Of a stretch of 43,340 bases of DNA, positions 1 through 12,363 are shown in pieces (the first letter of the stretch is position 1; every line of letters starts with the position of its first letter). The DNA is from Candidatus Sumerlaeia bacterium. GTDB taxonomy: Bacteria > Sumerlaeota > Sumerlaeia > SLMS01. The translations under genes were made by a program, and so were the position numbers. The notes below the pieces were generated by a model. It was not told the origin of the DNA, made no database searches, and worked only from the letters and a program-made list of their open reading frames with translations. Where the stretch lies: NCBI GenBank assembly GCA_038208905.1, contig JBBQYG010000012.1:1-43340 (forward strand). The letters are read 5' to 3'.

Positions 1-95
1 GGGTTGAAGGGGGCGGAGGTTTAAGGGGGCGGGGGCTACGCCTGATGTGTCTTCTGCTGCTGCGTTGGAGTGCCTGCGGGGAGCAACTACACCGA

Positions 96-320
96 CTAAG
101 AGCTAGCGGCCAGAGGCCCGCATGGTCGGTGATGTTGCATCGCGCCGATTTGCCCCATAGCATAGTATCGATGGGCCTGAGATAGGGGAGGAGACTTACG
201 CGGTCCTTCAATCGTGGCAGCAAACACTACCTTCTGTCCACCGCGATCCAGCTCGGCCACATCGGAGGCGGCGGGGATAAGCTGCTGTACATCGTCTGCG
301 GTCAAGTCCGGGATGGACAT
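96..320 (-). pseudogene. Probable 5' fragment of a Ser/Thr protein kinase-like gene
   Basis: N-terminus ...ELDRGGQKVVFAA resembles a kinase Gly-rich loop (GxGGQKxVF). The ORF turns non-kinase-like after about 40 aa and stops at 74 aa. Local GC is lower than the flanks. Confidence 0.4.
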
Positions 321-495
321 CTTGGGTCTCTATTGATTTTTCTGTTACTTCATGGAGCCTTCTTCGGTGGACGTTCCGGGCCTCGACTCAAAGGAGAACT
401 TCGCATCGAGATTGACCGTGCCAAGCCCTTTTTCACTTTCCCTTCGCTGGCAAGGACTTGTAGCCCTGCTCTGAGCGTAGATAGAGTTTTCCCCC

Positions 496-1026
496 TCACC
501 CCTCCACCACCGCCCGCAAGCTCGCCAGTCCCTTCTCGAAATCCTTACCCACCATCTTGTCCATGTTCATGAAGGTGCAGAAAATCTTGGCCACGAAGTT
601 GTTGGTGCCGGTCATGGACCAGGTGACGAGGGTGGCGTGGCCTTGGCCCTTGAATTCGAAGTCGGCGGTGTTGGTGGCCTTGAAGGGTTTGAGGAATTCG
701 AGCTTGATGCGGACGAAGGCGGGCGGGCGGCTGTCGGTGATGGTCATCTTGCCTTCGCCGACCTTGCTGTTGCCGAGCCAGGAGTAGAAGGAGCCGACAC
801 CCTCGGGCGGGCCGGCGTAGGCCTGCACCATGGCGGGGTCGAGCCGGGCCCAGGGCGACCACTTCTCCCAGTTCTTGAGGGCATTAACTTCCTCGAAGAC
901 GCGGGCGGGCGGCGCGGTCATGCGGGCGCTGCGCACGATGCGGAAGTCGGACGGCCGGGTGGCGACGTAGGCGAGGAAGGCGGCGATCATCAGGACGACC
1001 ACGGCCAGTGCATAGACGTAGAACAT
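496..1026 (-). CDS. SRPBCC/polyketide cyclase-like family protein with N-terminal membrane anchor
   Basis: MFYVYALAVVVLMIAAFLAYVATRPSDFRIVRS...WEKWSPW...DKMVGKDFEKGLASL is typical of the SRPBCC family. ATG at 1026 follows GGAG. Confidence 0.85.
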   Translation of the reverse strand: MFYVYALAVVVLMIAAFLAYVATRPSDFRIVRSARMTAPPARVFEEVNALKNWEKWSPWARLDPAMVQAYAGPPEGVGSFYSWLGNSKVGEGKMTITDSRPPAFVRIKLEFLKPFKATNTADFEFKGQGHATLVTWSMTGTNNFVAKIFCTFMNMDKMVGKDFEKGLASLRAVVEG

Positions 1027-1304
1027 GGGGACTCCCCAAAAAAGACGAAGGGTGGAAGACGGGGCTTTGACAAAGACCGTCCCCCGCACCCGCGAAAATG
1101 TCGATGGCAAATCGGCGGAGACCCACCCGGGCGGTTCAAAGAATTGCGCATTTCTTGCACAACCCGGCGGAATTCAACGATAATCCCAAGGGTTATGCAA
1201 TGATTTCGCTTGCACGCTCGCGCGTAAACCGCTCCAATAGGACATCGACTTGCAGAAACCGCCGCCCACGTCGGCACACTTTACACAAAAGGAAACCCCT
1301 CACC

Positions 1305-2240
1305 ATGCGCACTCGAATTTATGCTGCTATGTCCGCGGCCCTGATGCTTGCCGGATCCACGGCAATGGCCGGCTTTGGCACACCCGCAATCGATGGAACG
1401 CTCGACGCCGCCTATGGCGCCGCCGTATCGGTGCAGACTGTCCGCACGGCATTCGGCAGTTCCACCAACGGCAACCTGATCGGCGGCGGCGGCAGCGAAC
1501 TCAACGGCCTCTATCTGGCCAACAACGGGTCGACGCTGTTTGTCCTCCTCACTGGCAACGTCGAGTCCAACGGCAATACCCTGTATATCCTGATCGACGA
1601 TGTGTCCAACGCGGCGGGCCCCAATGTGCTGCCGAACACGCCGGGCAAGGACGACCTGTTCAACACGAACAAGCTGGGCGGAGCCACCATGCCGGTGGGC
1701 TTTGGGCCGGAATGGGGATTCGTGTTCAAGGGCTTCATGAACGGCGCCATCGGCGGCCCTTCGGACTATGACTATGTCTATTCGATCGCCAACTTCGTCA
1801 CGGGGACTTCGGTCGCTCCGGCGCTCGATCAACCGACGCTGGCTTTGGTGAATCCGGCGACGGGGACTGATTCCACCGCGGGCTACCCGATCACCTTTGC
1901 GCTGGACAATTCCAACGTCGCCGGCGTCAACGGCGGCATCAACCCCGATTGGGCCATCGTGGCCGAGACCCCCGCGACGGTGACCACGGGATACGAGATT
2001 GCCATCCCCCTCTCCGCCATTGTTCCCGCGACCACGGGCAACCTGAAGATCCTCGCCTACATCAGCAGCGGAGACGGCACCTTTGCCGCCAACCAGTTCC
2101 TTCCGCCGCTCGTGCCCGCCATCGGGAACGTTGGCAATCCGCCCCCGGGTGGCTACCTCTTCCCGACGCTCGGTTTGACCGCGGCCAGCTACTCGCTGGT
2201 GGTGCCGATGTCGGCGCCGAGCTGGAATCTCTACGAATAA
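1305..2240 (+). CDS. Secreted protein (Sec signal peptide) with C-terminal W-x-L-Y motif
   Basis: MRTRIYAAMSAALMLAGSTAMA signal peptide and AAGGA RBS. Body (IDGTLDAAYG..VQT..GSELNGLY..LTGNVESN) resembles domains seen in PEP-CTERM proteins. Ends VVPMSAPSWNLYE. Confidence 0.8.
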   Translation: MRTRIYAAMSAALMLAGSTAMAGFGTPAIDGTLDAAYGAAVSVQTVRTAFGSSTNGNLIGGGGSELNGLYLANNGSTLFVLLTGNVESNGNTLYILIDDVSNAAGPNVLPNTPGKDDLFNTNKLGGATMPVGFGPEWGFVFKGFMNGAIGGPSDYDYVYSIANFVTGTSVAPALDQPTLALVNPATGTDSTAGYPITFALDNSNVAGVNGGINPDWAIVAETPATVTTGYEIAIPLSAIVPATTGNLKILAYISSGDGTFAANQFLPPLVPAIGNVGNPPPGGYLFPTLGLTAASYSLVVPMSAPSWNLYE

Positions 2241-2260
2241 GCAGCGCGCCAGACCGCTGT

Positions 2261-2300
2261 AAGAATCCCCGCCGGGCGACCGGCGGGGATTCTTTATTTT
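2261..2300 (+). terminator. Intrinsic terminator
   Basis: AAGAATCCCCGCCGG-GCGA-CCGGCGGGGATTCTT perfect 15-bp stem followed by TATTTT, 20 nt after the stop codon. Confidence 0.85.
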
Positions 2301-2333
2301 CAGGGCGCCAGCGCGGCGCCACAACGAGCCGGG

Positions 2334-2470
2334 CTACGATCGGCCCGGGGGTGTATCTGATTGATGACTGGAGGCAGGGGGAGCGGCTTCGGGTTCGAGG
2401 AACTCCAGCGTGATGAGCGAGTTCATCGGCACCTCGTCGTGGGTCCAGCTCCGGGTGAAGACGAGGCGCG
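2334..2470 (-). pseudogene. Possible 3' remnant of an unknown gene
   Basis: Frame RLVFTRSWTHDEVPMNSLITLEFLEPEAAPP... has strongly GC3-biased codons but no evident start or RBS. Confidence 0.3.
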
Positions 2471-2523
2471 AGGGACAAGGAAACTGGCAAGCCGTTTGGT
2501 TTGTTTTTTGGCGGGAGCGAGTC

Positions 2524-3348
2524 CTACCCAAACAGATCGCCCGACTCCGGCACGGCGCGCGGGTCGCCGAGCATGGTGGCGAGTGCCAGCGCGTCGAGGA
2601 TGGCGTTTCCATCGGGGTGGTTGTTGAAGAAGACCAGGGTGCTGGTGGCCTTTTCCGCCGCATCGCGCAGGGCGGGAATCCACGGGTGGAGCTCGCCGGC
2701 CTGATAGCGGTAGCGATAGCGCGAGTCGCCGGCGGGATCGCCGTGGCCATACCACGCGGCGGCGTTGCGTCCGTGAAAGCGGACGTAGGCGATGGGGCCC
2801 GTGGGCGCGGCGCGGCGCGACTCGGAGAGACCCCGCAGCTCGGGCTGGTCGATCGCGACGCGCGATACCGCCATGTCGGCCAGGAAGGCGTCGGCGGCGG
2901 CGTTGTCCCAGGAGGCGTGCCGCAGCTCCACGGCGAGCGGCAATCCGGCGAGTGCCCCGCACGCTTGGCGGATGAGACCGCGACCCTCCGTGGTGTTGTG
3001 GAGTCCGTTGGGAAACTGAAGGAGCACGGCGGAGAGTACGCCGCCCTCGCGAAAGGGCTCCAGATAGTCTAGGAACGGATTCACCGCGGCGGCGTCGGCG
3101 CGGCCGCGGTGGGTCACGTCGCCGGGGGCCTTCACGGAGAAGGCGAGCCGCCCGCGCGCCTCGCGCACGGCGCGCCGCGCGGCGTCGGGCCTTGGCGTGC
3201 CGTAGTAGGTGGAGTTGATTTCCAGCGCGCGGAAGACAGAGGCATAGTAGTCCAGCCGCGCCGGCTTCGCGAGGCCGCGCGGATAGAACACGCCGTGCCA
3301 CTCGTCATAGGAATAGCCGGAGGTGCCGAGGAGGAGAGTCGCGGTCAC
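2524..3348 (-). CDS. DUF72 domain protein (YecE-like TIM barrel)
   Basis: GTSGYSYDEW..FYP, EINSTYY, FSVKAP, LLQFP, AVELRHASW, YVRFHGRN, FFNNH. The GTG start overlaps the polymerase TGA (GTGA). Confidence 0.92.
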   Translation of the reverse strand: MTATLLLGTSGYSYDEWHGVFYPRGLAKPARLDYYASVFRALEINSTYYGTPRPDAARRAVREARGRLAFSVKAPGDVTHRGRADAAAVNPFLDYLEPFREGGVLSAVLLQFPNGLHNTTEGRGLIRQACGALAGLPLAVELRHASWDNAAADAFLADMAVSRVAIDQPELRGLSESRRAAPTGPIAYVRFHGRNAAAWYGHGDPAGDSRYRYRYQAGELHPWIPALRDAAEKATSTLVFFNNHPDGNAILDALALATMLGDPRAVPESGDLFG

Positions 3349-5645
3349 CGGATGGAACTCCCGAAAAGGTCTGTCTGCGTCGATGCGGCGCGCGTGGGCT
3401 TCGCGGGCCGCGCGCGCGGGACGGGCGCCCACGGCGGCACGATGCGTTTCTCCTCCAGCGCGGTGCCCGCCGGCCACAGCAGCGTGTTCATCGCGCGACG
3501 CAGCATCCTGATCGCGGCCACGGGATCGGCGGTGGTCTCCGCGTCCATCAGGCTTTGCAGCCGCACGCGGCGCGAGCGGTCGACGTCGCTCCCCGACGTG
3601 ATCACATAGCTCAGCGATTCCCCCGCGTGCAGGTTCAACCCCGCCTCCACGGCCTGGCGCGCGGCGAGCGACTGGGTGCCGTTGCCGGTGTATTCGTCGG
3701 GCTCCTGGGAGAGGCTCTGCCTGATGAGAAGTTCCTCGAGCGGGACCTCGTTGCGCCACAGGGCGTCCTCCATCTCCGCAATGCGCGAGAGGAGTTCCGG
3801 CACCATCGCGCGATATGCCTGGGCGTCGGTTGCGGCGGCAAGGCGGCGCAGCAATTCAAGCTGGGCGGACTTCACATAGCCGGGGAGGTCGCGGCGGCGG
3901 CATTCGATCCCGCGGAACTTGACCGAGCCATCGCGGAACGCGCCGAAATAGCGCGTGGGCACGGGGCGATCCGGCACCTGGCGCGAGGGAAGGAAGGCCA
4001 GCCAATTGTAGATACCCTCCAGCGCGATCGGCAGATTGGTGGCCGCGGTGATCGCGTCACAGAGCGCCGGGACCTCCTCCTCGCCAAAGCCCGGCTTCAC
4101 GATCCACACGCAGTCCACATTCGCGTGCAGCATCCGCCAGCCGGCCTCCTCGCAGACGTCGCGCGCGCGCAGCAGCATCTCACGCGAATACGCCGAGACC
4201 GACTCGTGGGCCTCGATGCGGCCAAAGCGCGCGTTGCGGTAGCCCAGATAGCCAAAGCAGCAGACGAGCATCCACTTCAGCGCGTCCTGGCGCTGGTCCC
4301 ACCGCGCATAGGCCACGGTGTCGCCAGCCTCCTTGGCGCGCTTGCGCAGGACCTTGTACTGGACGCGCTTGGCGATGATCGGCGCGAGCGCGCGGGAGAC
4401 CAGGCCCGCGCGCTTCTCGCAAATCGTATAGTTGATTTCGGGCACCGCCTCGTTCCGGCAACACGCGCAGTTCACCGTCTCGGGAGAGACGTTGAAGCGC
4501 GACATGATGCTGGGATACATGGCGACGAAATCCAGCTCCACCACGTTCTGGTGCAACCCCGTTTCCGGCGCATAGACAAGGCCGCCGCGATCGGCCTTGA
4601 GCAGCTGGCGCGCGCTCTTCCACGCCTCGGGCTGGGTCTTCTTCCACGGGATCAGCAGCCCCTCCCGCCAGGCATGGTCCAGCTGGATCGAGGAAATCCC
4701 CGTGCCGATGCTGCGCCGCGCGATGCGCTGCATGGGAATGCGGGAAAGGCGCGCCACCTCGTACAGCCCGTCCATCCCATCGTGCGACAGCGTGAAGGAA
4801 TTCTTCCGGTCGAGATGCCACCGTCCACGCAACGCATACTCCGGCGCCTGGTACAGGATGCGGCCGTAGGAGAAAAACGACCGCCCATCGGTCTTGATCT
4901 CCCGCGAGTCCGGCGCCGCGTCGCGGTCGAGCCGCAGCGCGAACCGCGACCGCTTGGCCAGCGTGAAGAGCAGCGGCAGCAGGAACGAATCGCCCCGATC
5001 CGTCAGGATCAGGTCGGGATCCAGATCGTCCACCGCCCGCTGAAAGCTCGGCAGGATTTCGCCCGCATCGTCCCACGTGACGGCGTGTTCCTCGTGCTCC
5101 ATCGTCAGCGAGCGGAGCACCGGCCGCGGACCCTGCAGCGTGCCCACGCCGGAGAGTTCCACGATGCGCAGCGGCGGCGCCGCGTACTCCGTGGCCCAGC
5201 GGTCGTCTTCCCGCTCCAGCGAAAGCAGCCGCCGCTGTGCGTCGTGCTCCACGCGGCACCGCATCAGCGGAAACACATCGCGCTCGAAACCATAGGTCTG
5301 CTCCGGCGGCAGGTCGGCATTGTGCCAGCACAGCAACGGAAACCGGTCGGCGTGGCGATCCAGCGCGCGCCGCCACGTTTCCACGCGGAGCAGCCGGATC
5401 GCAAACACGCGGCGCAGCTCGCCCGTCCAGAAATCCCGTCGCTCCGTCCAGCCCTCCGGCGCTGCGTCGCCGGCCTTTTCCATCGCGCGCAGACAGGCGT
5501 CGATCTCCCGCCCGGGCCCCTCCACAAAAACAAGCGGCTCGTACGCATCCACCAGCCGCAACCGCTCCCCCCCATCCATGATGAACCACAGGACCATCCC
5601 GCCCCCCTGGGCGTGGTAGTCAAAGAGCCACCCTGCGGCGGTCAT
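3345..5645 (-). CDS. polB2: Family B DNA polymerase, PolB2 (archaeal-type) subgroup
   Basis: Motif A DRGGLVYAP...LDFVAMYPSIM..NVSPET; motif B RQDALKWMLVCCFGYLGY; divergent motif C LHANVDCVW; KFRGIECRRRD; degenerate exonuclease region; PolB2-type gene neighbourhood. Confidence 0.88.
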   Translation of the reverse strand: MTAAGWLFDYHAQGGGMVLWFIMDGGERLRLVDAYEPLVFVEGPGREIDACLRAMEKAGDAAPEGWTERRDFWTGELRRVFAIRLLRVETWRRALDRHADRFPLLCWHNADLPPEQTYGFERDVFPLMRCRVEHDAQRRLLSLEREDDRWATEYAAPPLRIVELSGVGTLQGPRPVLRSLTMEHEEHAVTWDDAGEILPSFQRAVDDLDPDLILTDRGDSFLLPLLFTLAKRSRFALRLDRDAAPDSREIKTDGRSFFSYGRILYQAPEYALRGRWHLDRKNSFTLSHDGMDGLYEVARLSRIPMQRIARRSIGTGISSIQLDHAWREGLLIPWKKTQPEAWKSARQLLKADRGGLVYAPETGLHQNVVELDFVAMYPSIMSRFNVSPETVNCACCRNEAVPEINYTICEKRAGLVSRALAPIIAKRVQYKVLRKRAKEAGDTVAYARWDQRQDALKWMLVCCFGYLGYRNARFGRIEAHESVSAYSREMLLRARDVCEEAGWRMLHANVDCVWIVKPGFGEEEVPALCDAITAATNLPIALEGIYNWLAFLPSRQVPDRPVPTRYFGAFRDGSVKFRGIECRRRDLPGYVKSAQLELLRRLAAATDAQAYRAMVPELLSRIAEMEDALWRNEVPLEELLIRQSLSQEPDEYTGNGTQSLAARQAVEAGLNLHAGESLSYVITSGSDVDRSRRVRLQSLMDAETTADPVAAIRMLRRAMNTLLWPAGTALEEKRIVPPWAPVPRARPAKPTRAASTQTDLFGSSIR

Positions 5646-5695
5646 GGCCGCCGCCCCTGCCGGGAAAAGTTGGAGGATAGGGTGGCCAAGGACAT
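5642..5695 (-). CDS. Putative leaderless 17-aa uORF (MSLATLSSNFSRQGRRP) translationally coupled to polB2
   Basis: ATG directly after the promoter/operator motif. Its TGA overlaps the polB2 ATG (ATGA). Confidence 0.45.
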   Translation of the reverse strand: MSLATLSSNFSRQGRRP

Positions 5696-5730
5696 GGCGA
5701 ATAAAAAGCGAATCTAGCGCGCCGTGTCAA
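5696..5730 (-). promoter_or_regulatory. Promoter (-35 TTGACA) with direct-repeat operator ATTCGC-N5-ATTCGC, copy 1
   Basis: Minus strand reads TTGACACGGCGCGCTAGATTCGCTTTTTATTCGCC-ATG, nearly identical to 6883-6918. Confidence 0.7.
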
Positions 5731-5813
5731 GCCCGCCCCCGATGGGGTTGTATTCGGGGCGGGTTGGGAATACCATCATGACGCGTTGGATGCGACGCTG
5801 AAGAGAACTGGTC

Positions 5814-5918
5814 ATGGACTGGACAGAACGAATCGCTTTCGATCCCGACGTGTGCCATGGCAAGGCGTGCGTCAAGGGCACGCGGGTGATGGTATCCGTG
5901 GTGATCGCCGATCCTTGA
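5814..5918 (+). pseudogene. Truncated DUF433 (COG2442) antitoxin-like gene, 5' part
   Basis: MDWTERIAFDPDVCHGKACVKGTRVMVSVVIADP* matches the DUF433 N-terminus (RI..DP.V.hGKP.I.GTRI.V) but stops at 34 aa. Confidence 0.8.
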
Positions 5919-6028
5919 CTTTGGCGAAGCTGGTAATCGACAAGTTGGAAACGCATCAATTGCCGGGCAGGCTATGGTCCGTGGATGAGCGGACAATCCG
6001 CGTGAGGGGCGCGGCAAAGCCGGGTTGA
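5919..6028 (+). pseudogene. 3' remnant of a DUF5615/PIN-like toxin gene
   Basis: LAKLVIDKLETHQLPGRLWSVDERTIRVRG resembles the C-terminal ...G.l.vvd..riRvR tail of DUF5615 proteins, the usual partners of DUF433. Confidence 0.55.
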
Positions 6029-6032
6029 ACGT

Positions 6033-6296
6033 TCATCCCCGTTCCCCCCGCAACCCCTCAACCTCCACCGCCAGCCGCTCCAGCTCCAATTCCTGCTCCA
6101 GCAGGATCGCCATCACCATCGCGTCGAAGGGCACCGGGCGCGCCGCGCAGGTGGCCTCCGCCGTGTGGCGGCGGGCGCGGGTGAACAGGCGGTCGAAGGC
6201 CGGGCGCTGTTCAGCCCTCAGGCCCCGGCGAAAGTCCCTCCAGGAGTCGATCTCCGCCTGGAGCCAGGTGTTGAAAGTCGGCAGCGTTCGTCCCAT
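6033..6296 (-). CDS. Small helical PolB2-associated protein (arCOG07300-like)
   Basis: MGRTLPTF...W..FRRGLR.E....FDRLF..ARRH...P.PFDAMVMAILLEQE matches the small protein encoded with archaeal PolB2. Confidence 0.8.
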   Translation of the reverse strand: MGRTLPTFNTWLQAEIDSWRDFRRGLRAEQRPAFDRLFTRARRHTAEATCAARPVPFDAMVMAILLEQELELERLAVEVEGLRGERG

Positions 6297-6882
6297 CGGG
6301 GCACCTCTCGATTCGCATCTTCCAGTCGCCATCGTCCCGCCGGATCGCCCGCGCGCGGACGTCTCCGAATTCCAGCATCGGCCTCCACCAGCCCTGGCCC
6401 CGCGGCGGCGCCTCGTGCGTCACCAGCAGGCGCGCCCCGCCGCCGCGCAGGCCGGCCAGATCCGCCATCACGCGCGCCAGCACACGGCTACGCTCCGCCG
6501 CGCGCAGCGACTCCTCCAGAAACAGGTGGTCCAGCCCCAGCACCGCCATCGCCGCCGGGGGATTCTCTCCCAGCAGGGGCGGCATCAACTCCGCCGTGAC
6601 CGCCGCAAGCTGGTGAATCGTAAAACAGCGCGTCACAAAGACGCGATCCAGCACGTCCTCTCCCACGCCCCGGCGGCGCGCTTCGTGGCTGAACGCATAG
6701 GGATCGAAACAGTTGGCGCCATCGGCCACATACAGCCGCCGGTCCCCCTCCAGAAACAACGGAGCCAACGCCCCCAGCACCACCGGCGTCGCCCGGCGGG
6801 AGGCCTCCAGCACAAACGAAAGCCCACCCCCCGCGAGCGCGGGCGGCAGATGCACGAAGTTGATGGCGGGCTCGGGCGGCAT
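6211..6882 (-). CDS. Inactivated RecA/RadA-fold protein (iRadA / ImuA-like)
   Basis: VADGANCFDPY...VLDRVFVTRCFTIHQL...VLGLDHLF gives a RecA-fold core with no Walker A. First gene of the PolB2 cassette. Confidence 0.75.
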   Translation of the reverse strand: MPPEPAINFVHLPPALAGGGLSFVLEASRRATPVVLGALAPLFLEGDRRLYVADGANCFDPYAFSHEARRRGVGEDVLDRVFVTRCFTIHQLAAVTAELMPPLLGENPPAAMAVLGLDHLFLEESLRAAERSRVLARVMADLAGLRGGGARLLVTHEAPPRGQGWWRPMLEFGDVRARAIRRDDGDWKMRIERCPDGTNAADFQHLAPGGDRLLEGLSPGPEG

Positions 6883-6918
6883 GGGCGAAACAAAAGCGAA
6901 TCAAGCCCCCCGTGTCAA
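6883..6918 (-). promoter_or_regulatory. Promoter (-35 TTGACA) with direct-repeat operator ATTCGC-N5-TTTCGC, copy 2
   Basis: Minus strand reads TTGACACGGGGGGCTTGATTCGCTTTTGTTTCGCCC-ATG with no RBS, so apparently leaderless. Confidence 0.7.
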
Positions 6919-6982
6919 TCAGGGAAGCCACCGCGTGCTACCCATGTCCTGAACCAATCCCTGCTTCTTCCCACCCACCCCA

Positions 6983-7031
6983 TCCCCGCTTTTCCCGCTT
7001 TTCCCGTTTTTCCCTGCTTCTCCTGCCGTCC
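6983..7031. repeat. Degenerate 9-nt tandem repeat (TTCCCGCTT-like)
   Basis: tccccgctt ttcccgctt ttcccgttt ttccctgct... Confidence 0.6.
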
Positions 7032-8099
7032 CTACTCCTTGACCGGCGCGAACTGCTTGAAGCGCTCCTTGTCGAGCGACTTCATGTAGGCCTCGGTGCC
7101 GTCCACCAGGCCCTTCTGCAGGTAGCCGTCGATGCAATCGTCCATGAGCTGCATGCCGAGGGCGCGATTGGACATGATGATCTGGGTGAGCATGGCGTTC
7201 TTCCCCTCGCGGATCGTGTTGGAAACGGCGAGGTTCTGGATCAGGATTTCGTGGGCGGCGATGCGGCCCTTGCCGCCGGTCTTCTTGAGGAGGAGCTGGG
7301 CGCAGATCGCCCGCAGCGTCACCGCCAGCGATTGGCGGATGGCGTTCTGCTGGTCCGCGGGGAACACGTCGATGATGCGGTCAACGGTCTTCACGGCGCT
7401 GTTGGTGTGCAGCGTGCCGAAGACCAGCGTCCCCGTCTCGGCGCCGCTCACCGCGAGGCCGATCGTCTCCAGGTCGCGCATCTCCCCCACCAGCAACACG
7501 TCGATGTCCTGGCGGCTGGTCGCCTTCAGCGCCGCGGCGAAGCTGGGCACGTCGATCCCCACCTCGCGCTGGACGATGGTTGATTTCTTGTTGGGGTGGA
7601 CGAATTCGATCGGCTCCTCCACCGTCATGATGTGGCGCGCGGTGGTGGTGTTGATGAAGTCTATGACGCCGGCCAGCGTGGTCGATTTGCCGGAGCCCGT
7701 GGGCCCCGTGACCAGGCACAGCCCCGCGTTGAAGCCGCCAAACGTCTTGAGCACGGGCGGCGCGCCGAGATCCTCCAGCGTCAGGATCTTCGAGGGAATC
7801 GTCCGGAAGACCGCGCCGTATCCCGCGTACTGCTTGTTGTAGTTCGCGCGAAAGCGGGCCTTCTTCTCATAGGCGTAGGCGAAATCCAGGTCGCCCGTCT
7901 CCACGAAGCGCTCCCACCGCTTGGGGATGCAGATCTCGCTCAGCATCGACCCGAGCGTCTCCCCGTCCAGCACCCCCCACCCGGCGATCGGCGACACCTC
8001 TCCGTGGAGCCGGAGCTTGGGCGGCTGCCCCTGCGCCAGATGCAAGTCCGACGCCCCCGAGGAGAGCATCGCATCAAAAAGCTGGTCGAGGACGGCCAT
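7032..8099 (-). CDS. pilT: Type IV pilus retraction ATPase PilT
   Basis: ASDLHL, Walker A GPTGSGKSTT, EEPIEF, VQREVG, Walker B LLVGEMRD, ETG..VFGTLHTN, AVSNTIREGK. Confidence 0.9.
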   Translation of the reverse strand: MAVLDQLFDAMLSSGASDLHLAQGQPPKLRLHGEVSPIAGWGVLDGETLGSMLSEICIPKRWERFVETGDLDFAYAYEKKARFRANYNKQYAGYGAVFRTIPSKILTLEDLGAPPVLKTFGGFNAGLCLVTGPTGSGKSTTLAGVIDFINTTTARHIMTVEEPIEFVHPNKKSTIVQREVGIDVPSFAAALKATSRQDIDVLLVGEMRDLETIGLAVSGAETGTLVFGTLHTNSAVKTVDRIIDVFPADQQNAIRQSLAVTLRAICAQLLLKKTGGKGRIAAHEILIQNLAVSNTIREGKNAMLTQIIMSNRALGMQLMDDCIDGYLQKGLVDGTEAYMKSLDKERFKQFAPVKE

Positions 8100-8261
8100 G
8101 GGGAGGACTCCGGTTACAGGCTAGGGTGGGTTCAGGATGGGCGATGCGGCTGTGCGACGCAAGCGAAGGGGCGGGATTCCCCGGAGTCGTTTTAGAAAAT
8201 CCTGTCGCGATGGGGAGTGCCGCGTGAAGACGCGGCCACGCGGAGCCCAGGATGCCGACGG

Positions 8262-8325
8262 GGCTCGGGCGAGACGCCCAAGCTACCTTGGAAGGCTCGG
8301 GCGAGACGCCCAAGCTACCTTGGAA
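8262..8325 (-). repeat. Two tandem 32-bp copies of a GTAG-type REP-like palindrome
   Basis: (GGCTCGGGCGAGACGCCCAAGCTACCTTGGAA)x2. On the minus strand GTAG is followed by the hairpin CTTGGGCG-TCT-CGCCCGAG. Confidence 0.75.
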
Positions 8326-8433
8326 TGCGACAGGACTTTCGAGAGCCACACTGAAGTCTCCCTCATGCCCCGGCTACAGCAGGCCAAGCGCCGGGCGCGA
8401 CGCTCCCAAGCGACCCAATTGAAAGCGGAATAG

Positions 8434-8539
8434 CCACTGCCCGCTTAAGCGGGCAACCCATTGCCGCCGGCTTCAGCCGGGGGACCCCGGCTACCAATGA
8501 TCCGAGCGCGCTTCAGCGTGCTTGCTCCCGGCTTCAGCC
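8434..8539. repeat. ~106-bp multi-hairpin repeat unit, copy A
   Basis: Hairpins CCCGC-TTAA-GCGGG, CCGGC-TTCA-GCCGG, GCGCGC-TTCA-GCGTGC and GGC-TTCA-GCC. Near-identical to 9165-9272. Confidence 0.9.
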
Positions 8540-8986
8540 ACTCTCCCCCGCATCGCCCTCGTCGAATCCCCAGTGCTCCAGCTTCTCTCGCGTTGTTCCC
8601 TTGGCGTGGTGCACCTTCTGGCCGAGAACATACCGGCGTAGCGCGGGCAAATCTCTCCCGGCGAAGCTGACCACCCCGTAGCCTCGCTGCCACGCCAGCG
8701 TGCTTGCGCCGAACTCGCGATTCACATCGAACGAACTCGCTCCCTTGACCTTGCCGATGAACTGCGCGGGGCAAAGGTGCGGCTCGACTTGGAGCAGCAG
8801 ATGGACATGGGTCTCTGTTCCGCCCACCTCGATGAATCGCGATCCCTTCGTTGCGTCACAATACTCGCGGAAGAATTGGAACAGCCGGGCCTCGATCTGC
8901 GGATGGATCAACGGGGCGTCGTATTTGCAGTGCCAGTTGAAGTGGAGGAAAATCTCTGAATAGACATGTGTGGACACGGAGAGCAT
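8534..8986 (-). mobile_element. tnpA: IS200/IS605-family TnpA (Y1 HUH) transposase, probably REP-associated (RAYT-like)
   Basis: LHFNWHCKY, HUH motif THVHLL, KGASS, WQRGYG, RRYVLGQKVHH. No tnpB. Flanked by palindromic arrays. Confidence 0.9.
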
Positions 8987-9090
8987 GGCTGAAGCTCCGG
9001 AACAAGCACGCTGAAGCGCGCTCGGGAATTGATTGGGCAGCCTCCCTCCGGCTTAAGCCGGAGGCAAGTAGAGTCCCGCTGAAGCGGGAC
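8987..9090. repeat. Inverted, diverged copy of the multi-hairpin unit (copy B)
   Basis: GGCTGAAGC..AAGCACGCTGAAGCGCGCTCGG..CCGGCTTAAGCCGG..CCCGCTGAAGCGGG is the reverse complement of the unit A layout. Confidence 0.8.
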
Positions 9091-9164
9091 AAGAACCAGG
9101 AACTCCCAAAGCTCCTCAACCATCCCGCAAGCCCGCTCCAACGGGAGGATTCGGAGTTTCGTCC

Positions 9165-9272
9165 CCACTGCCCGCTTAAGCGGGCAACCCATTGCCGCCG
9201 GCTTCAACCGGGGGACCCCGGCCACCAATGATCCGAAGCGCGCTTCAGCGTGCTTCCCCTCGGGCTTCAGCC
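9165..9272. repeat. ~108-bp multi-hairpin repeat unit, copy C (direct repeat of A)
   Basis: CCACTGCCCGCTTAAGCGGGCAACCCATTGCCGCCGGCTTCA... shared with 8434. Confidence 0.9.
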
Positions 9273-9645
9273 GCTCTCTTCGCATCGACTGTGGCGCCGA
9301 GGCGATGCCGGAGAGCGCTTGCTCCCCGCCGCCAGCCACTTCCCCCCGCGCATCAGGCAGGATTCCACCACGGTTGCTCCAATCCGCCGAAATTCCCCCG
9401 GGAAAAAGTGCTCGAATTGGCATATTTTCACAAAATCTTGCTTGCCGTCGTGCGAATGTCGCGGTCCAACTTCATAGTTGGGTAAGATTTCACTCGACGG
9501 GAGGGTAGGGATCGGTATCACCTGATCGAGACCGGACGGGCTCGGGGCCCTTTAGCCGAAATGATGCGAACGAGTTGCTTCGCCTCATCCCAGGCTCAAT
9601 TATCCCGATCAAGCCGGCGATACCACCTTCAGGAGAACAAGTGAG

Positions 9646-10476
9646 ATGAAGAAGATAATCTACAGCGCGGCAATCGCCGCAGTCGCCATGGCCGCCGCCC
9701 CGGCGTATTCGCAGCTCCCCGCACTTCAGGATTTCACGGGTCTCAACTTGGCCGAGTTGAATGGCCAGGGCGGATGGAACTTCAGCGGCACGAACACGAC
9801 CCCCGTTATCAACGTCACGACAGGCGACGTGGACATCGTTGGCCTTCCCGCGCAGAGCGGCGACCGTTCCATCACCATTGAGGGTTTGGGTCAGGACGTC
9901 GGCCTTTCCTTCGGATCCGCCATTACTCCCACTGGCGGCGCCCTGTATGCCTCCTTCGCGATCGTCGTGACGGCGACGGCTGGCAATTTGGATGCCGACA
10001 CCCCCCCCACCAACCCCTCCGCCAGCAATAACGACGACGATTACTTCTTCCACTTCACAGAGGGAATTCTGGCCAGCGGTTCCGGCTTTCGCGGCCGAAC
10101 CTTCATCGACCGTGGCGCCACGGGATTCTATCTCGGTGTCCGCACGACCTCGGGAGATCCTGGCACCTACGCCCCCACTGAGTACGCATTTGGTACGCCG
10201 ACCTTCGTCGTCGTGAAGCTCAACTTCAATCCGGGCATCACGGACGACACGGTCCAGATTTTCGTGAATCAGGCAGTTGCCTCGGAGCCTGTTTCCGCCG
10301 ACGCCACGGAAGCGACCGCGATCGACTTCGCAGCCATCGGCCGCATTGGCTTCCGTCAGGATAGCGTTCTCGAGACCCCCAACATCCGGATCGATCAGGT
10401 TCGTGTTGGCGAGACGTGGGCCAGCGTCGTTCCCGTCGCCCCCTCCGCCGTCTCCGACTGGTCGATGTTCAACTAA
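9646..10476 (+). CDS. Secreted beta-sandwich-like protein with C-terminal W-x-M-F motif
   Basis: MKKIIYSAAIAAVAMAAAPAYS signal peptide and AGGAGA RBS. IDQVRVGETWASVVP is followed by VAPSAVSDWSMFN*. Confidence 0.85.
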   Translation: MKKIIYSAAIAAVAMAAAPAYSQLPALQDFTGLNLAELNGQGGWNFSGTNTTPVINVTTGDVDIVGLPAQSGDRSITIEGLGQDVGLSFGSAITPTGGALYASFAIVVTATAGNLDADTPPTNPSASNNDDDYFFHFTEGILASGSGFRGRTFIDRGATGFYLGVRTTSGDPGTYAPTEYAFGTPTFVVVKLNFNPGITDDTVQIFVNQAVASEPVSADATEATAIDFAAIGRIGFRQDSVLETPNIRIDQVRVGETWASVVPVAPSAVSDWSMFN

Positions 10477-10507
10477 GTCGTCCCCGCCTCACCCGTCTTA
10501 AATCAAC

Positions 10508-10546
10508 CGGGGGCCGCGCAATCATCGCGCGGCCCCCGTTCTGTTT
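10508..10546. terminator. Intrinsic terminator between convergent genes
   Basis: CGGGGGCCGCGC-AATCATC-GCGCGGCCCCCG followed by TTCTGTTT. Confidence 0.75.
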
Positions 10547-10582
10547 CCATTCCCCGTTCCCTATTCCCCATTCCCAACCGTC

Positions 10583-12001
10583 CTACCCCTCGTCCTTAAC
10601 CTTGTCGAACGTCTGCTTGTTGTTGGCGCAGCGATAGGCGTCGCGTCCGGTGATGATCTTCTGGGCGAGGAGGGCGCCGAGGGAGTCCTCCATGAGTATC
10701 ATGCCCTGGCGCTTGCCGCCCTGGATCATGGAGGTTACCAAGTGGAGCTTGTTCTCCTTGATCTGGGTCGCCACGCCGCTGGTGTTGACGAGGACCTCCA
10801 GCGCGAGGGCGCGGCCCTTGCCGTCCACGCGGGGGATAAGCTGCTGGCTGATGACGCCGCGCAGGGATTCGGCGACCATGACGCAGATCTGCTTCTGCTG
10901 GCTGATGGGATAGGCGTCGACGATGCGCGCCACGGTGCGCGCCGCGCTGCCGGTGGGGAGCGTGCCGAAGACGAGATGGCCGGTCTCCGCCGCGCTGATG
11001 GCGATGGAGGTGGTCTCCAGGTCGCGCATTTCGCCGATCAGGATGATGTCGGGATCCTCGCGCAGGGCCGCGCGCAAGGCGTTGGCGAAGCTCATCGTGT
11101 GGCGGCCCACCTCGCGCTGGGTCACTTGGCAATGCTTCGCCGGGATCACGTACTCGACGGGGTCCTCCACGGTGATGATGTGGTCGTGGCGGGCCATGTT
11201 GACGAGGTCCACGAGGGCGGCGACGGTGGTCGTCTTGCCGGAGCCCGCAGGGCCCGTGACCATCACGAGGCCCTGATTGTATTCGGTGAAGACGCGCAGG
11301 CTGGCGGGGAGGCCAAGCTCCTCCAGCGTGGGGACAGAGGAGCGGATGATGCGGTAGGAGCCGTCCCACCCGAGGCGCTGCTTGAAGATGTTGCAGCGAT
11401 GGCGCCCGACGCCCTCGATCTCGAGCGCGAAGTCGAGCTGCTGGTTGTCCGCCGCCGTGGCGCGCTGGTCGTCGTTGAGGCCGGAGAAGTTGAGTTCCTC
11501 GGCGCGCTCCGGCGTGAGGATGTCCATCTCCATGTAGCGGATCTGGCCGTGGAGCCGGACGAACGGCGGGCGCCCGACGGTGAGGTGAAGGTCCGAGCAT
11601 CCCCAATGCCGCGCGAGGCGGAGAAACCCGACGAGTGTCTTGGGCTTGGAGAGGGATTCGCCCTCCGCCGTGGCGATGGAACTGGGGGCGGGCGACGGCG
11701 GCGCCGACGCCACGCGCGTGGTGGGCGGCATCGCCGCCGCGGCAGACTGGTTGGCCATGCGCTGGGCGGCGGTGGGGGGCATCTGGCCAACGGATTCGTC
11801 GCCCTGGCCGGAACCGCTGCCGAGCTGCGCGTGGAGGTCGGCCAGTTGGCTCTCCGTCACGAGAAGCCGCGCGAGCAGGAGTTGGCCGAGGTCGCTGGCC
11901 ACGCCGGCGTCGATCTCGTCGTGGATCATCTCCGCCTGCTTGCGCGTGAGGAGCCTGCCCTGCAGCGCCAGCTCCAGCAATTGTCGATCGGATTCCGTCA
12001 C
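10583..12001 (-). CDS. PilT/PilU-family ATPase with N-terminal helical extension
   Basis: CSDLHL, GPAGSGKTTT, EDPVEY, QREVG, ALREDPDIILIGEMRD, AETGHLVFGTLPT. Probable GTG start at VTESDRQLL. Confidence 0.88.
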   Translation of the reverse strand: MTESDRQLLELALQGRLLTRKQAEMIHDEIDAGVASDLGQLLLARLLVTESQLADLHAQLGSGSGQGDESVGQMPPTAAQRMANQSAAAAMPPTTRVASAPPSPAPSSIATAEGESLSKPKTLVGFLRLARHWGCSDLHLTVGRPPFVRLHGQIRYMEMDILTPERAEELNFSGLNDDQRATAADNQQLDFALEIEGVGRHRCNIFKQRLGWDGSYRIIRSSVPTLEELGLPASLRVFTEYNQGLVMVTGPAGSGKTTTVAALVDLVNMARHDHIITVEDPVEYVIPAKHCQVTQREVGRHTMSFANALRAALREDPDIILIGEMRDLETTSIAISAAETGHLVFGTLPTGSAARTVARIVDAYPISQQKQICVMVAESLRGVISQQLIPRVDGKGRALALEVLVNTSGVATQIKENKLHLVTSMIQGGKRQGMILMEDSLGALLAQKIITGRDAYRCANNKQTFDKVKDEG

Positions 12002-12098
12002 GGGTGGGAGAGCCTTCCCGCCGGCGAGCCCACGGGCCCCGGCGCAGCGAATCGTCCTTGTAGGGGAAGCTGGCGGTCGCAGGCTGAAAGGGTCAAGG

Positions 12099-12209
12099 GG
12101 GGGAACGGCGGGAAAAACGGAAACAGCGGGAACAGCGGAAAAAACCGCTACCCTCGTCCATTCCGTCAATGCTGTCGATCTGGTCAATCTCGTCCATTGC
12201 GCCCATTCC
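12099..12209. repeat. Two adjacent degenerate 9-nt tandem repeat tracts
   Basis: GGGAACGGC/GGGAAAAAC/GGAAACAGC... followed by GTCCATTCC/GTCAATGCT/GTCGATCTG/GTCAATCTC/GTCCATTGC. Confidence 0.65.
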
Positions 12210-12363
12210 GCCCGGGAAACCACCACTGGCGACCCTGATTTTCCTTATTTCATTGCATCGGTTCTTTGCCGGTTGACTCGGAACGCGGAATGCTTTGCGG
12301 TGTAACCACTTACACGAAATCATGTGTAGGGAAATTCACGGAACCGCCCGATGGGAAGCCGTC

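Follow-up and report, generated by a model that had tools for sequence, protein, structure and literature searches.

A bacterial PolB2 mutasome operon with a probable SOS operator and an optional DUF72 companion gene in a Candidatus Sumerlaeia bacterium

We analyzed a 43,340-nucleotide (nt) stretch of DNA (hereafter the window) from a Candidatus Sumerlaeia bacterium (phylum Sumerlaeota; contig JBBQYG010000012.1 of assembly GCA_038208905.1) that carries a cassette of co-oriented genes on its minus strand: iRadA (6211-6882), PPB2 (6033-6296), the family-B DNA polymerase PolB2 (3345-5645), and a DUF72 protein (2524-3348). The gene order iRadA-PPB2-PolB2 on one strand is the bacterial order of the PolB2 mutasome operon, for which Makarova et al. 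(2014) are reportedly also to be named. Because the window is GC-rich (0.60-0.71), long spurious open reading frames (ORFs) are common in it. The features of the locus are as follows.

6913-6918, minus strand: -35-like TTGACA of promoter P1, read from the sequence
6885-6900, minus strand: box 1, a TTCGC-TTTTGT-TTCGC direct repeat and probable LexA operator (sequence, relatives, genome counts)
6211-6882, minus strand: iRadA, predicted RadA/Rad51 fold without Walker A (sequence, AlphaFold2, Foldseek)
6033-6296, minus strand: PPB2 (arCOG07300 / DUF8156-like), 87 amino acids, with an MGRT N-terminal arm (sequence, relatives, Atlas matches)
5725-5730, minus strand: -35-like TTGACA of internal promoter P2, read from the sequence
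5697-5712, minus strand: box 2, TTCGC-TTTTTA-TTCGC, with the architecture of box 1, in the PPB2-polB2 gap
5642-5695, minus strand: hypothetical mini-ORF of 17 codons, starting 1 nt past box 2
3345-5645, minus strand: PolB2, family-B polymerase with degenerate proofreading motifs (profiles, identity to a published table, PDB alignment)
4104-4121, minus strand: motif C HANVDC, PolB2 residues 509-514 (alignment to Pfu)
3363-3377, minus strand: C-terminal beta-clamp-binding-like motif QTDLF, PolB2 residues 757-761 (motif kept across the phylum)
2524-3348, minus strand: DUF72 TIM-barrel protein of clade C, GTG start (PF01904, tree, model)
2527-2568, minus strand: low-confidence C-terminal tail of DUF72, residues 261-274, with a GDLFG end, a candidate beta-clamp motif (clade comparison, model)
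2261-2294, strand-neutral: 15-bp palindromic hairpin separating DUF72 from the gene that converges on it (1098-2240)

The catalytic subunit (766 residues; PF00136, E = 1.8e-31) is, by sequence comparison, a member of the PolB2 group. Its best NCBIfam models are PRK05761 "type B" subfamilies (NF004418, 384 bits; NF004416, 349 bits; both under their cut-offs), and the archaeal "DNA polymerase I" models give 105-173 bits. The closest PDB sequence matches are Pyrococcus/Thermococcus PolB (E = 6e-43) and S. solfataricus Pol I (E = 2e-25), with no Pol II chain among the 53 PDB sequences matched at E ≤ 1e-5. E. coli-type Pol II was rejected as an identity, as NF004420-NF004422 reach 25-61 bits where their cut-offs are 570-1435. 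In the published PolB2 operon table (Timinskas, Timinskas & Venclovas 2025, PMC11791011), the three rows nearest to our protein, which carry the labels Poribacteria, Sumerlaeota, and "bacterium", are 73-75% identical to it over the approximately 400 residues stored (the N-terminal half); all three have HANVDCVWI and a DUF72 gene at +1, and QPDLF is given as the PolB2 clamp motif in two of them. A sequence-only reading of this locus had described a PolB of the PolB2 rather than the Pol II kind, with a HANVDC motif C and a degenerate exonuclease, behind an inactive RadA-like gene and a small MGRT gene, and the comparisons here and in the next two paragraphs agree with that description.

Aligned to Pfu, motif C reads H509-A-N-V-D-C514 against Y-I-D-T-D-G: Asn takes the place of the first catalytic Asp, leaving the second Asp only. 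Motif A (DFVAMYPS) is conserved, and motif B reads K..CCFGY. The exonuclease is degenerate at the ExoII region (RGDSFLLPLL against NGDSFDFPYL in Pfu), ExoI having been judged by eye only. Near its C-terminus PolB2 carries QTDLF, which fits the beta-clamp motif consensus; the pattern Q..[LMIF][FL] occurs in the last 20 residues of 22 of the 25 PolB2 proteins of the phylum.

iRadA (223 residues) has a single lysine, lacks GxxxxGK[ST], and has no match in Pfam or NCBIfam. Its AlphaFold2 model (11-row alignment; predicted local distance difference test, pLDDT, 78.9; predicted template modelling score, pTM, 0.78) finds RadA/Rad51/DMC1 ATPase cores as top Foldseek matches (E about 1e-10, TM 0.62-0.68), and by this model iRadA is an inactive (ATPase-dead) RadA-fold protein. 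PPB2 lies in an ORF at 6033-6332 whose conserved start is M13 (6296); relatives align from residue 12 or 13, and the protein reads MGRTLPTFNTWLQAEIDSWRDFRRGLR. It has no match in local Pfam or NCBIfam, and its 30 ESM-Atlas neighbours without exception belong to DUF8156 (clusters with a length of 87-89 residues, mostly archaeal; score 0.94, a lead only). MGRT stands at the conserved start, matching the description of this N-terminus as a hallmark of PPB2 (PMC11791011). The iRadA frame overlaps the start of PPB2 by 86 nt (6211-6296), and the overlapping residues 196-223 are modelled as disordered (197-223, pLDDT <50). In several relatives (L012, L017, L018, and L025) the iRadA frame ends close to the PPB2 start, and iRadA-PPB2 fusions are known in the literature; the junction seems to be evolutionarily fluid.

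PolB2 operons in archaea and bacteria have been described in detail by Timinskas, Timinskas & Venclovas (2025, PMC11791011), who inferred a single archaea-to-bacteria transfer, report iRadA-PPB2-PolB2 as the sole bacterial order, and modelled the three proteins as one damage-tolerance polymerase complex, a heteropentamer. In the operons that they describe, a clamp motif is carried by PolB2 or by iRadA. Their operon table has at least 2606 rows, of which at least 840 are bacterial (counts from it are lower bounds, and its sequence cells hold about 400 residues), so that the view of the triad as mainly archaeal, from which the sequence-only reading started, is outdated. LexA, SRAP, and DUF72 are enriched near these operons, DUF72 being called a UVDE-related TIM barrel and found in 119 of 1823 operon neighbourhoods in Table S1 (PMC11791011). 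In the operon table, DUF72 is at most five genes from PolB2 in at least 31 bacterial and at least 88 archaeal rows, and at +1 in at least 14 bacterial and at least 16 archaeal rows. The present cassette resembles the published bacterial operon in gene order and orientation, in the loss of the first Asp of DxD, in an ATPase-dead RadA-fold partner, in an MGRT PPB2, in a beta-clamp motif on PolB2 only, and in DUF72 at +1. Relatives with DUF72 at +1 having been published, the cassette, including its DUF72 linkage, is therefore a member of a published kind. The earlier idea of a bacterial B-family mutasome extended by DUF72 holds as to identity but not as to novelty, the association being already in print (PMC11791011).

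Two features set this locus apart from the published bacterial operons, so far as these are given in the available portion of PMC11791011: a 388-nt gap between PPB2 and polB2 with a second promoter and operator-like box, and no lexA, SRAP, or orc1/cdc6 gene adjoining. The operator repeat and the clamp-like tail of DUF72, both considered below, do not appear in that portion of the paper either, its clamp columns being for PolB2 and iRadA only. The modestly new details of our analysis are the probable SOS operator of the phylum and the clamp-like tails borne by PolB2 and by the proteins of two DUF72 clades. The operator bears on how bacterial PolB2 operons with no adjoining lexA are regulated, and offers a testable candidate for the SOS box of a little-studied phylum.

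Upstream of iRadA, TTGACA is followed after 17 nt by the -10-like hexamer TTTTGT, which is itself the spacer of the direct repeat TTCGC-TTTTGT-TTCGC (box 1). The ATG comes 2 nt later, so the iRadA mRNA is probably leaderless. TTGAC(A) stands at an equal distance upstream of the box in the relatives L002, L003, L005, L006, L009, L010, L012, and L013. Box 2 has the same architecture (TTGACA, 17 nt, and the repeat, with an ATG 1 nt past it). A consensus sigma-70 promoter scan of 2000-7300 returned 0 sites; P1, like P2, has a good -35 and a weak -10, and it was left uncalled because of the latter. A second box precedes polB2 in L001, in L004 (823-nt gap), and in L007 (polB2 alone), loci in which polB2 is set apart from PPB2, and is absent in L002 and in compact operons.

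The organism's own genome (94% complete) has 38 exact copies of TTCGC-N6-TTCGC, and four of them precede iRadA, polB2, lexA, and recN. LexA matches TIGR00498 with 206 bits (cut-off 111), and RecN, whose box lies 8 nt upstream, matches TIGR00634 with 491 bits (cut-off 408). The lexA promoter box is GTTCGCCGGATGTTCGCC, comes directly after TTGAC, and reads GTTC-N7-GTTC. Within 150 nt upstream, the exact repeat was found before lexA in 9 of 30 genomes and before iRadA at 9 of 15 loci, compared with 5 of 20,000 windows drawn at random from the own genome. A relaxed form, composed after the data had been seen, was found before lexA in 28 of 30 genomes and before iRadA at 13 of 15 loci (random windows: 46 of 20,000). 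The lexA promoters of the phylum (about 9890-9990 on contig C67 of the own genome, G000, locus L133; L134-L162 elsewhere) often have several copies of the repeat, with sites ahead of the -35, in the spacer that separates it from the -10, and, often reversed (GCGAA-N6-CGAA), downstream.

TTCGC-N6-TTCGC is probably the SOS (LexA) operator shared by lexA, recN, iRadA, and polB2. Its architecture matches the direct-repeat SOS box GTTCN7GTTC of Caulobacter and other alphaproteobacteria (PMC9578287) in being a direct repeat with an 11-bp period, and the own lexA box reads as that very motif; the phylum consensus differs, being [G/T/A]TTCGC-N5-[G/T]TTCGC, and the cassette boxes begin with A or T. It could be argued that the repeat is a promoter element or the site of some other regulator, since it encloses a -10-like hexamer, so that part of its conservation could be promoter sequence, and since, of the 38 exact copies in the genome, 34 have no recognised repair gene beside them and many are inside ORFs; nor was any box found before dinB. 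We consider this alternative unlikely. Multiple copies before lexA are a hallmark of autoregulation, the relaxed repeat precedes lexA in nearly all the genomes surveyed, the repeat is also found before recN, and the match to GTTCN7GTTC extends to the own lexA box. Both promoters of the cassette would then probably be under LexA control, with leaderless transcripts.

The PPB2-polB2 gap (388 nt; 5696-6032) contains two unsupported ORFs, one at 5714-5959 on the minus strand (81 residues) and one at 5786-6028 on the plus strand (80 residues), neither of which has a match in NCBIfam. A close relative in the published table also has an unnamed gene between PPB2 and PolB2 (PMC11791011). The mini-ORF at 5642-5695 reads MSLATLSSNFSRQGRRP, and its TGA overlaps the ATG of polB2 (ATGA); it could couple polB2 translation to a leaderless transcript. 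It has no counterpart in L004 and is not conserved.

The fourth gene encodes a 274-residue protein with a clear DUF72 domain (PF01904, E = 8.9e-50, 170 bits against a cut-off of 25.3) and is the sole DUF72 copy in its own genome. The stop codon TGA of polB2 and the GTG start of DUF72 share GTGA (junction ...CGGTGACC), so that the GTGA overlap previously noted is confirmed, and translational coupling of DUF72 to PolB2 is likely from this junction. The linkage also recurs elsewhere, as had been asked of it. PolB2 is present in 25 of the 75 species genomes of Sumerlaeota (16 of the 43 high-quality genomes), and DUF72 lies directly downstream of polB2 in 9 of these 25; the junction is overlapping or abutting in 7 of the 9 linked loci, and in the other two the genes are 511 and 933 nt apart. 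DUF72 as such is found in 46 of the 75 genomes, in 22 of 25 with PolB2 and in 24 of 50 without (raw counts from related genomes that are not independent). DUF72 is a recurrent but optional companion of PolB2 operons.

To place the linked copies among their relatives, we took the 64 DUF72 matches, left out five short fragments, and examined the remaining 59 genes, 56 of which are rows of a maximum-likelihood tree. The three missing from the tree are one on G044 C23 (masked residues), one on G051 C19 (off the contig end), which looks like clade C, and one G043 C23 copy, which is tail-less. A single clade of 15 (clade C; SH-like approximate likelihood ratio test, SH-aLRT, 93) takes in all 9 linked copies. 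The rest of clade C consists of five unlinked copies from PolB2 genomes and one from an 83%-complete genome in which PolB2 was not found, so 14 of the 15 come from PolB2-bearing genomes. The sister clade (clade D; 18 copies, SH-aLRT 98) has 14 copies from genomes without PolB2, and the two clades together have a support of 96. At least five PolB2 genomes (G009, G032, G034, G036, and G052) have a clade C DUF72 gene outside the operon.

The two clades share a C-terminal feature. All 15 clade C proteins have a short end extension with DLF, ELF, NLF, or DMF (here PESGDLFG), and all 18 clade D proteins have canonical Q[LGPT][DES][LMI]F-type tails; a clamp-like tail is found in 33 of 33 rows of clades C and D against 1 of 23 other DUF72 rows. 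Such endings are rare in the own genome, where [DESN][LMIF]F occurs in the last 8 residues of 36 of 4330 ORFs of at least 200 residues, and Q..[LMIF]F in 4 of 4330. Among the 150 nearest 50%-identity cluster representatives worldwide, [DESN][LMIF]F stands in the final 8 residues of 21 and Q..[LMIF][FL] in the final 10 of 26, a few of the latter being false positives at helix ends. The tail lies beyond the region aligned to TM1631 (residues 6-260; 1vpq, E = 1.2e-34) and has low confidence in the DUF72 model (pLDDT 93.3 overall; means of 75 and 46 in the last two 10-residue blocks). A complex prediction for DnaN (386 residues, 25-row alignment) with DUF72 (32-row alignment) scored 0.05 against a mark of 0.32 and, having been run without controls, speaks neither for nor against binding. 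Clamp-motif-like tails are present on other cassette members too, on the PPB2 of L014 (G046, ...SIQKDFLE) and at or near the ends of iRadA in L009 (G034, ...EELPLFG) and L017 (G011, ...GLFG), and they seem, from these sequences, to move between members. In our literature search, DUF72 and the clamp came together only in PMC11791011, whose clamp columns, in the portion available, are restricted to PolB2 and iRadA.

These data bear on the earlier proposal that DUF72 is a fourth component, that is, a stoichiometric subunit of the PolB2 complex. The GTGA, ATGA, or TGATG overlaps in 7 of the 9 linked loci suggest that the synthesis of the two proteins is coupled and close to equimolar, and the linked copies group in a single clade that hardly occurs outside PolB2 genomes, both as a subunit would have it. 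However, clade C DUF72 is outside the operon in the five or more PolB2 genomes listed above, none was seen in three others, and the published heteropentamer models are complete without it (PMC11791011). Because DUF72 is facultative, is encoded elsewhere in several genomes, and has a clamp-like tail of its own, an independent clamp client fits better than a subunit, and we regard the subunit proposal as improbable.

The fold of DUF72 is compatible with a nuclease without pointing to one in particular. The model superimposes on 1vpq (TM1631) with Z = 32.7, within the range for DUF72 structures (Z 31-33). The next matches with VIA-align wide (Z 11.5-15) are xylose-isomerase-like TIM barrels, among them MbnB, sugar isomerases and epimerases, and the nucleases Endo IV (Z 11.6-12.9) and UVDE (Z 12.0). 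Among the Foldseek matches listed against the PDB, DUF72 structures come first and the others are generic TIM barrels; neither UVDE nor Endo IV is in that list. Six residues are invariant (E43, H80, E141, D167, H192, and H244) and would suit a metal site. UVDE and Endo IV have been proposed as functional analogues of DUF72 (PMC11791011, PMC3828134); for TM1631, an endonuclease function like that of Endo IV was suggested from in silico work by Konc et al. (2013, PMC3828134). Both nucleases belong to the same xylose-isomerase-like TIM-barrel superfamily as DUF72, but have no sequence-level match to it and structural scores no better than those of sugar isomerases. We found no activity for any DUF72 in the literature; a control search recovered the family from 9 of 14 familiar genomes, whose range extends from E. 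coli to archaea.

A TIM-barrel enzyme acting on a sugar or other metabolite might then simply be co-transcribed with the polymerase as an unrelated passenger. The tie in fold with sugar isomerases and epimerases would allow this, as would the facultative linkage and the varied housekeeping contexts of unlinked copies, which lack the operator repeat. Against it stand the recurrence of the association (at least 88 archaeal and at least 31 bacterial rows; PMC11791011), the restriction of clade C to PolB2 genomes (14 of 15), and a conserved clamp-motif-like tail, which is hard to explain on a metabolic enzyme. On balance we find the passenger explanation doubtful.

We interpret the cassette as a bacterial PolB2 mutasome operon under LexA control with an accessory, clamp-docked DUF72, and give this explanation as a whole a probability of roughly 0.8. 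LexA would control two promoters of like design, one before iRadA and one before polB2, by binding the boxes. iRadA, PPB2, and a proofreading-deficient PolB2 (NVD for DTD) would form one damage-tolerance polymerase complex capable of translesion synthesis in this organism, and PolB2 would bind the beta-clamp by its C-terminal QTDLF. DUF72 would be an accessory enzyme of the xylose-isomerase-like TIM-barrel superfamily and not a core subunit, docking on the clamp by its own C-terminal DLF tail. There, it might act as a nuclease that incises or trims damaged DNA ends for a PolB2 without a working exonuclease. Lesion incision or end processing on the clamp is the role of DUF72 that we put first, at somewhat less than even odds, because DUF72 has a clamp-like tail and is coupled to a polymerase without a working exonuclease. 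A more speculative extension, that the proteins of both DUF72 clades are clamp-docked lesion- or end-processing enzymes, made here from SOS promoters together with PolB2 and incising at lesions or cleaning blocked 3' ends on the clamp to allow extension by PolB2, is offered as a tentative possibility. If true, this would be the first function for DUF72, and the SOS box of the phylum would be a TTCGC-N6-TTCGC direct repeat driving leaderless transcripts. The clade-specific tails, on linked and unlinked copies alike, point to DUF72 working on DNA at the sliding clamp.

Several observations weigh against this explanation. We found no experiment on any bacterial PolB2 in the literature. DUF72 is dispensable, being adjacent in only 9 of the 25 PolB2 genomes and not found in 3 of them, and in the published table it is at most five genes away in 31 of 840 bacterial rows (both lower bounds; PMC11791011). 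Near 17 clade D and 6 unlinked clade C loci (95 ORFs) there was no recurrent repair-gene partner, in a survey that picked the longest ORFs in GC-rich DNA and included some antisense artefacts. In most clade C tails the Gln that opens the canonical QL[SD]LF is missing (here SGDLF), and the fold does not single out nucleases, Endo IV and UVDE being tied with MbnB and sugar isomerases and epimerases. As to regulation, the relaxed operator pattern is post hoc, and no box was found within 200 nt upstream of dinB. The repeat was found within 300 nt upstream of 0 of the 59 DUF72 genes, so nothing indicates that unlinked copies are themselves under SOS control.

The proposed complex has analogues in better known systems. 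PolB2 (Dpo2) of Sulfolobus islandicus belongs to the same polymerase group, has its first motif C Asp likewise replaced, and is reported to be required for targeted mutagenesis (PMC11791011); its host, however, is an archaeon with PCNA and not a beta-clamp. An analogy has been drawn with E. coli Pol V (UmuD'2C-RecA), a damage-tolerance polymerase of several subunits that is under SOS control, works with a partner of the recombinase family, and has a clamp motif (PMC11791011); Pol V has a Y-family catalytic subunit and an active RecA, and is not homologous to the PolB2 cassette. The ImuA-ImuB-DnaE2 system is comparable as a mutagenesis cassette of three genes that LexA controls and that begins with a RecA-fold-like gene; it differs in its Y-family-like ImuB and C-family DnaE2, neither of which is in this cassette.

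We also looked for such polymerases elsewhere in the genome, a check suggested with the sequence-only reading. The sole Y-family (IMS) match is a DinB/Pol IV (336 bits against a cut-off of 256), and the sole full S24 protein is LexA; UmuC, UmuD, ImuB, and DnaE2 were not found in the 94%-complete genome. There are two Pol III alpha-like proteins, the second of which (1085 residues; G000 C43, 7858-11115; L034, 3859-7116) adjoins tadA. It was rejected as DnaE2, scoring 150 bits against a cut-off of 939; it is far below the DnaE cut-off too and is not in an imuAB context. As Pol V and ImuABC were not found, DinB being present, PolB2 may be the genome's main inducible mutagenic polymerase.

Downstream of DUF72, the hairpin at 2261-2294 is likely to be a two-way terminator closing the operon. 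A search of positions 1-12000 of the window against Rfam returned nothing reaching the gathering score. Upstream of the cassette and on the same strand is an ORF for a pilT-type type II/IV secretion ATPase (7032-8099; PF00437), and a further ORF on that strand (10583-12226) is pilT-type ATPase-like, as judged from its translation only. Some 1.6 kb upstream of the cassette there is a gene for an IS200-like Y1 transposase (8534-8986; PF01797, E = 2.5e-18), and a G/A-rich run of near-repeats (6975-7030), GGGAAAAACGGGAAAAGCGGGAAAAGCGGGG, comes directly past the pilT stop codon.

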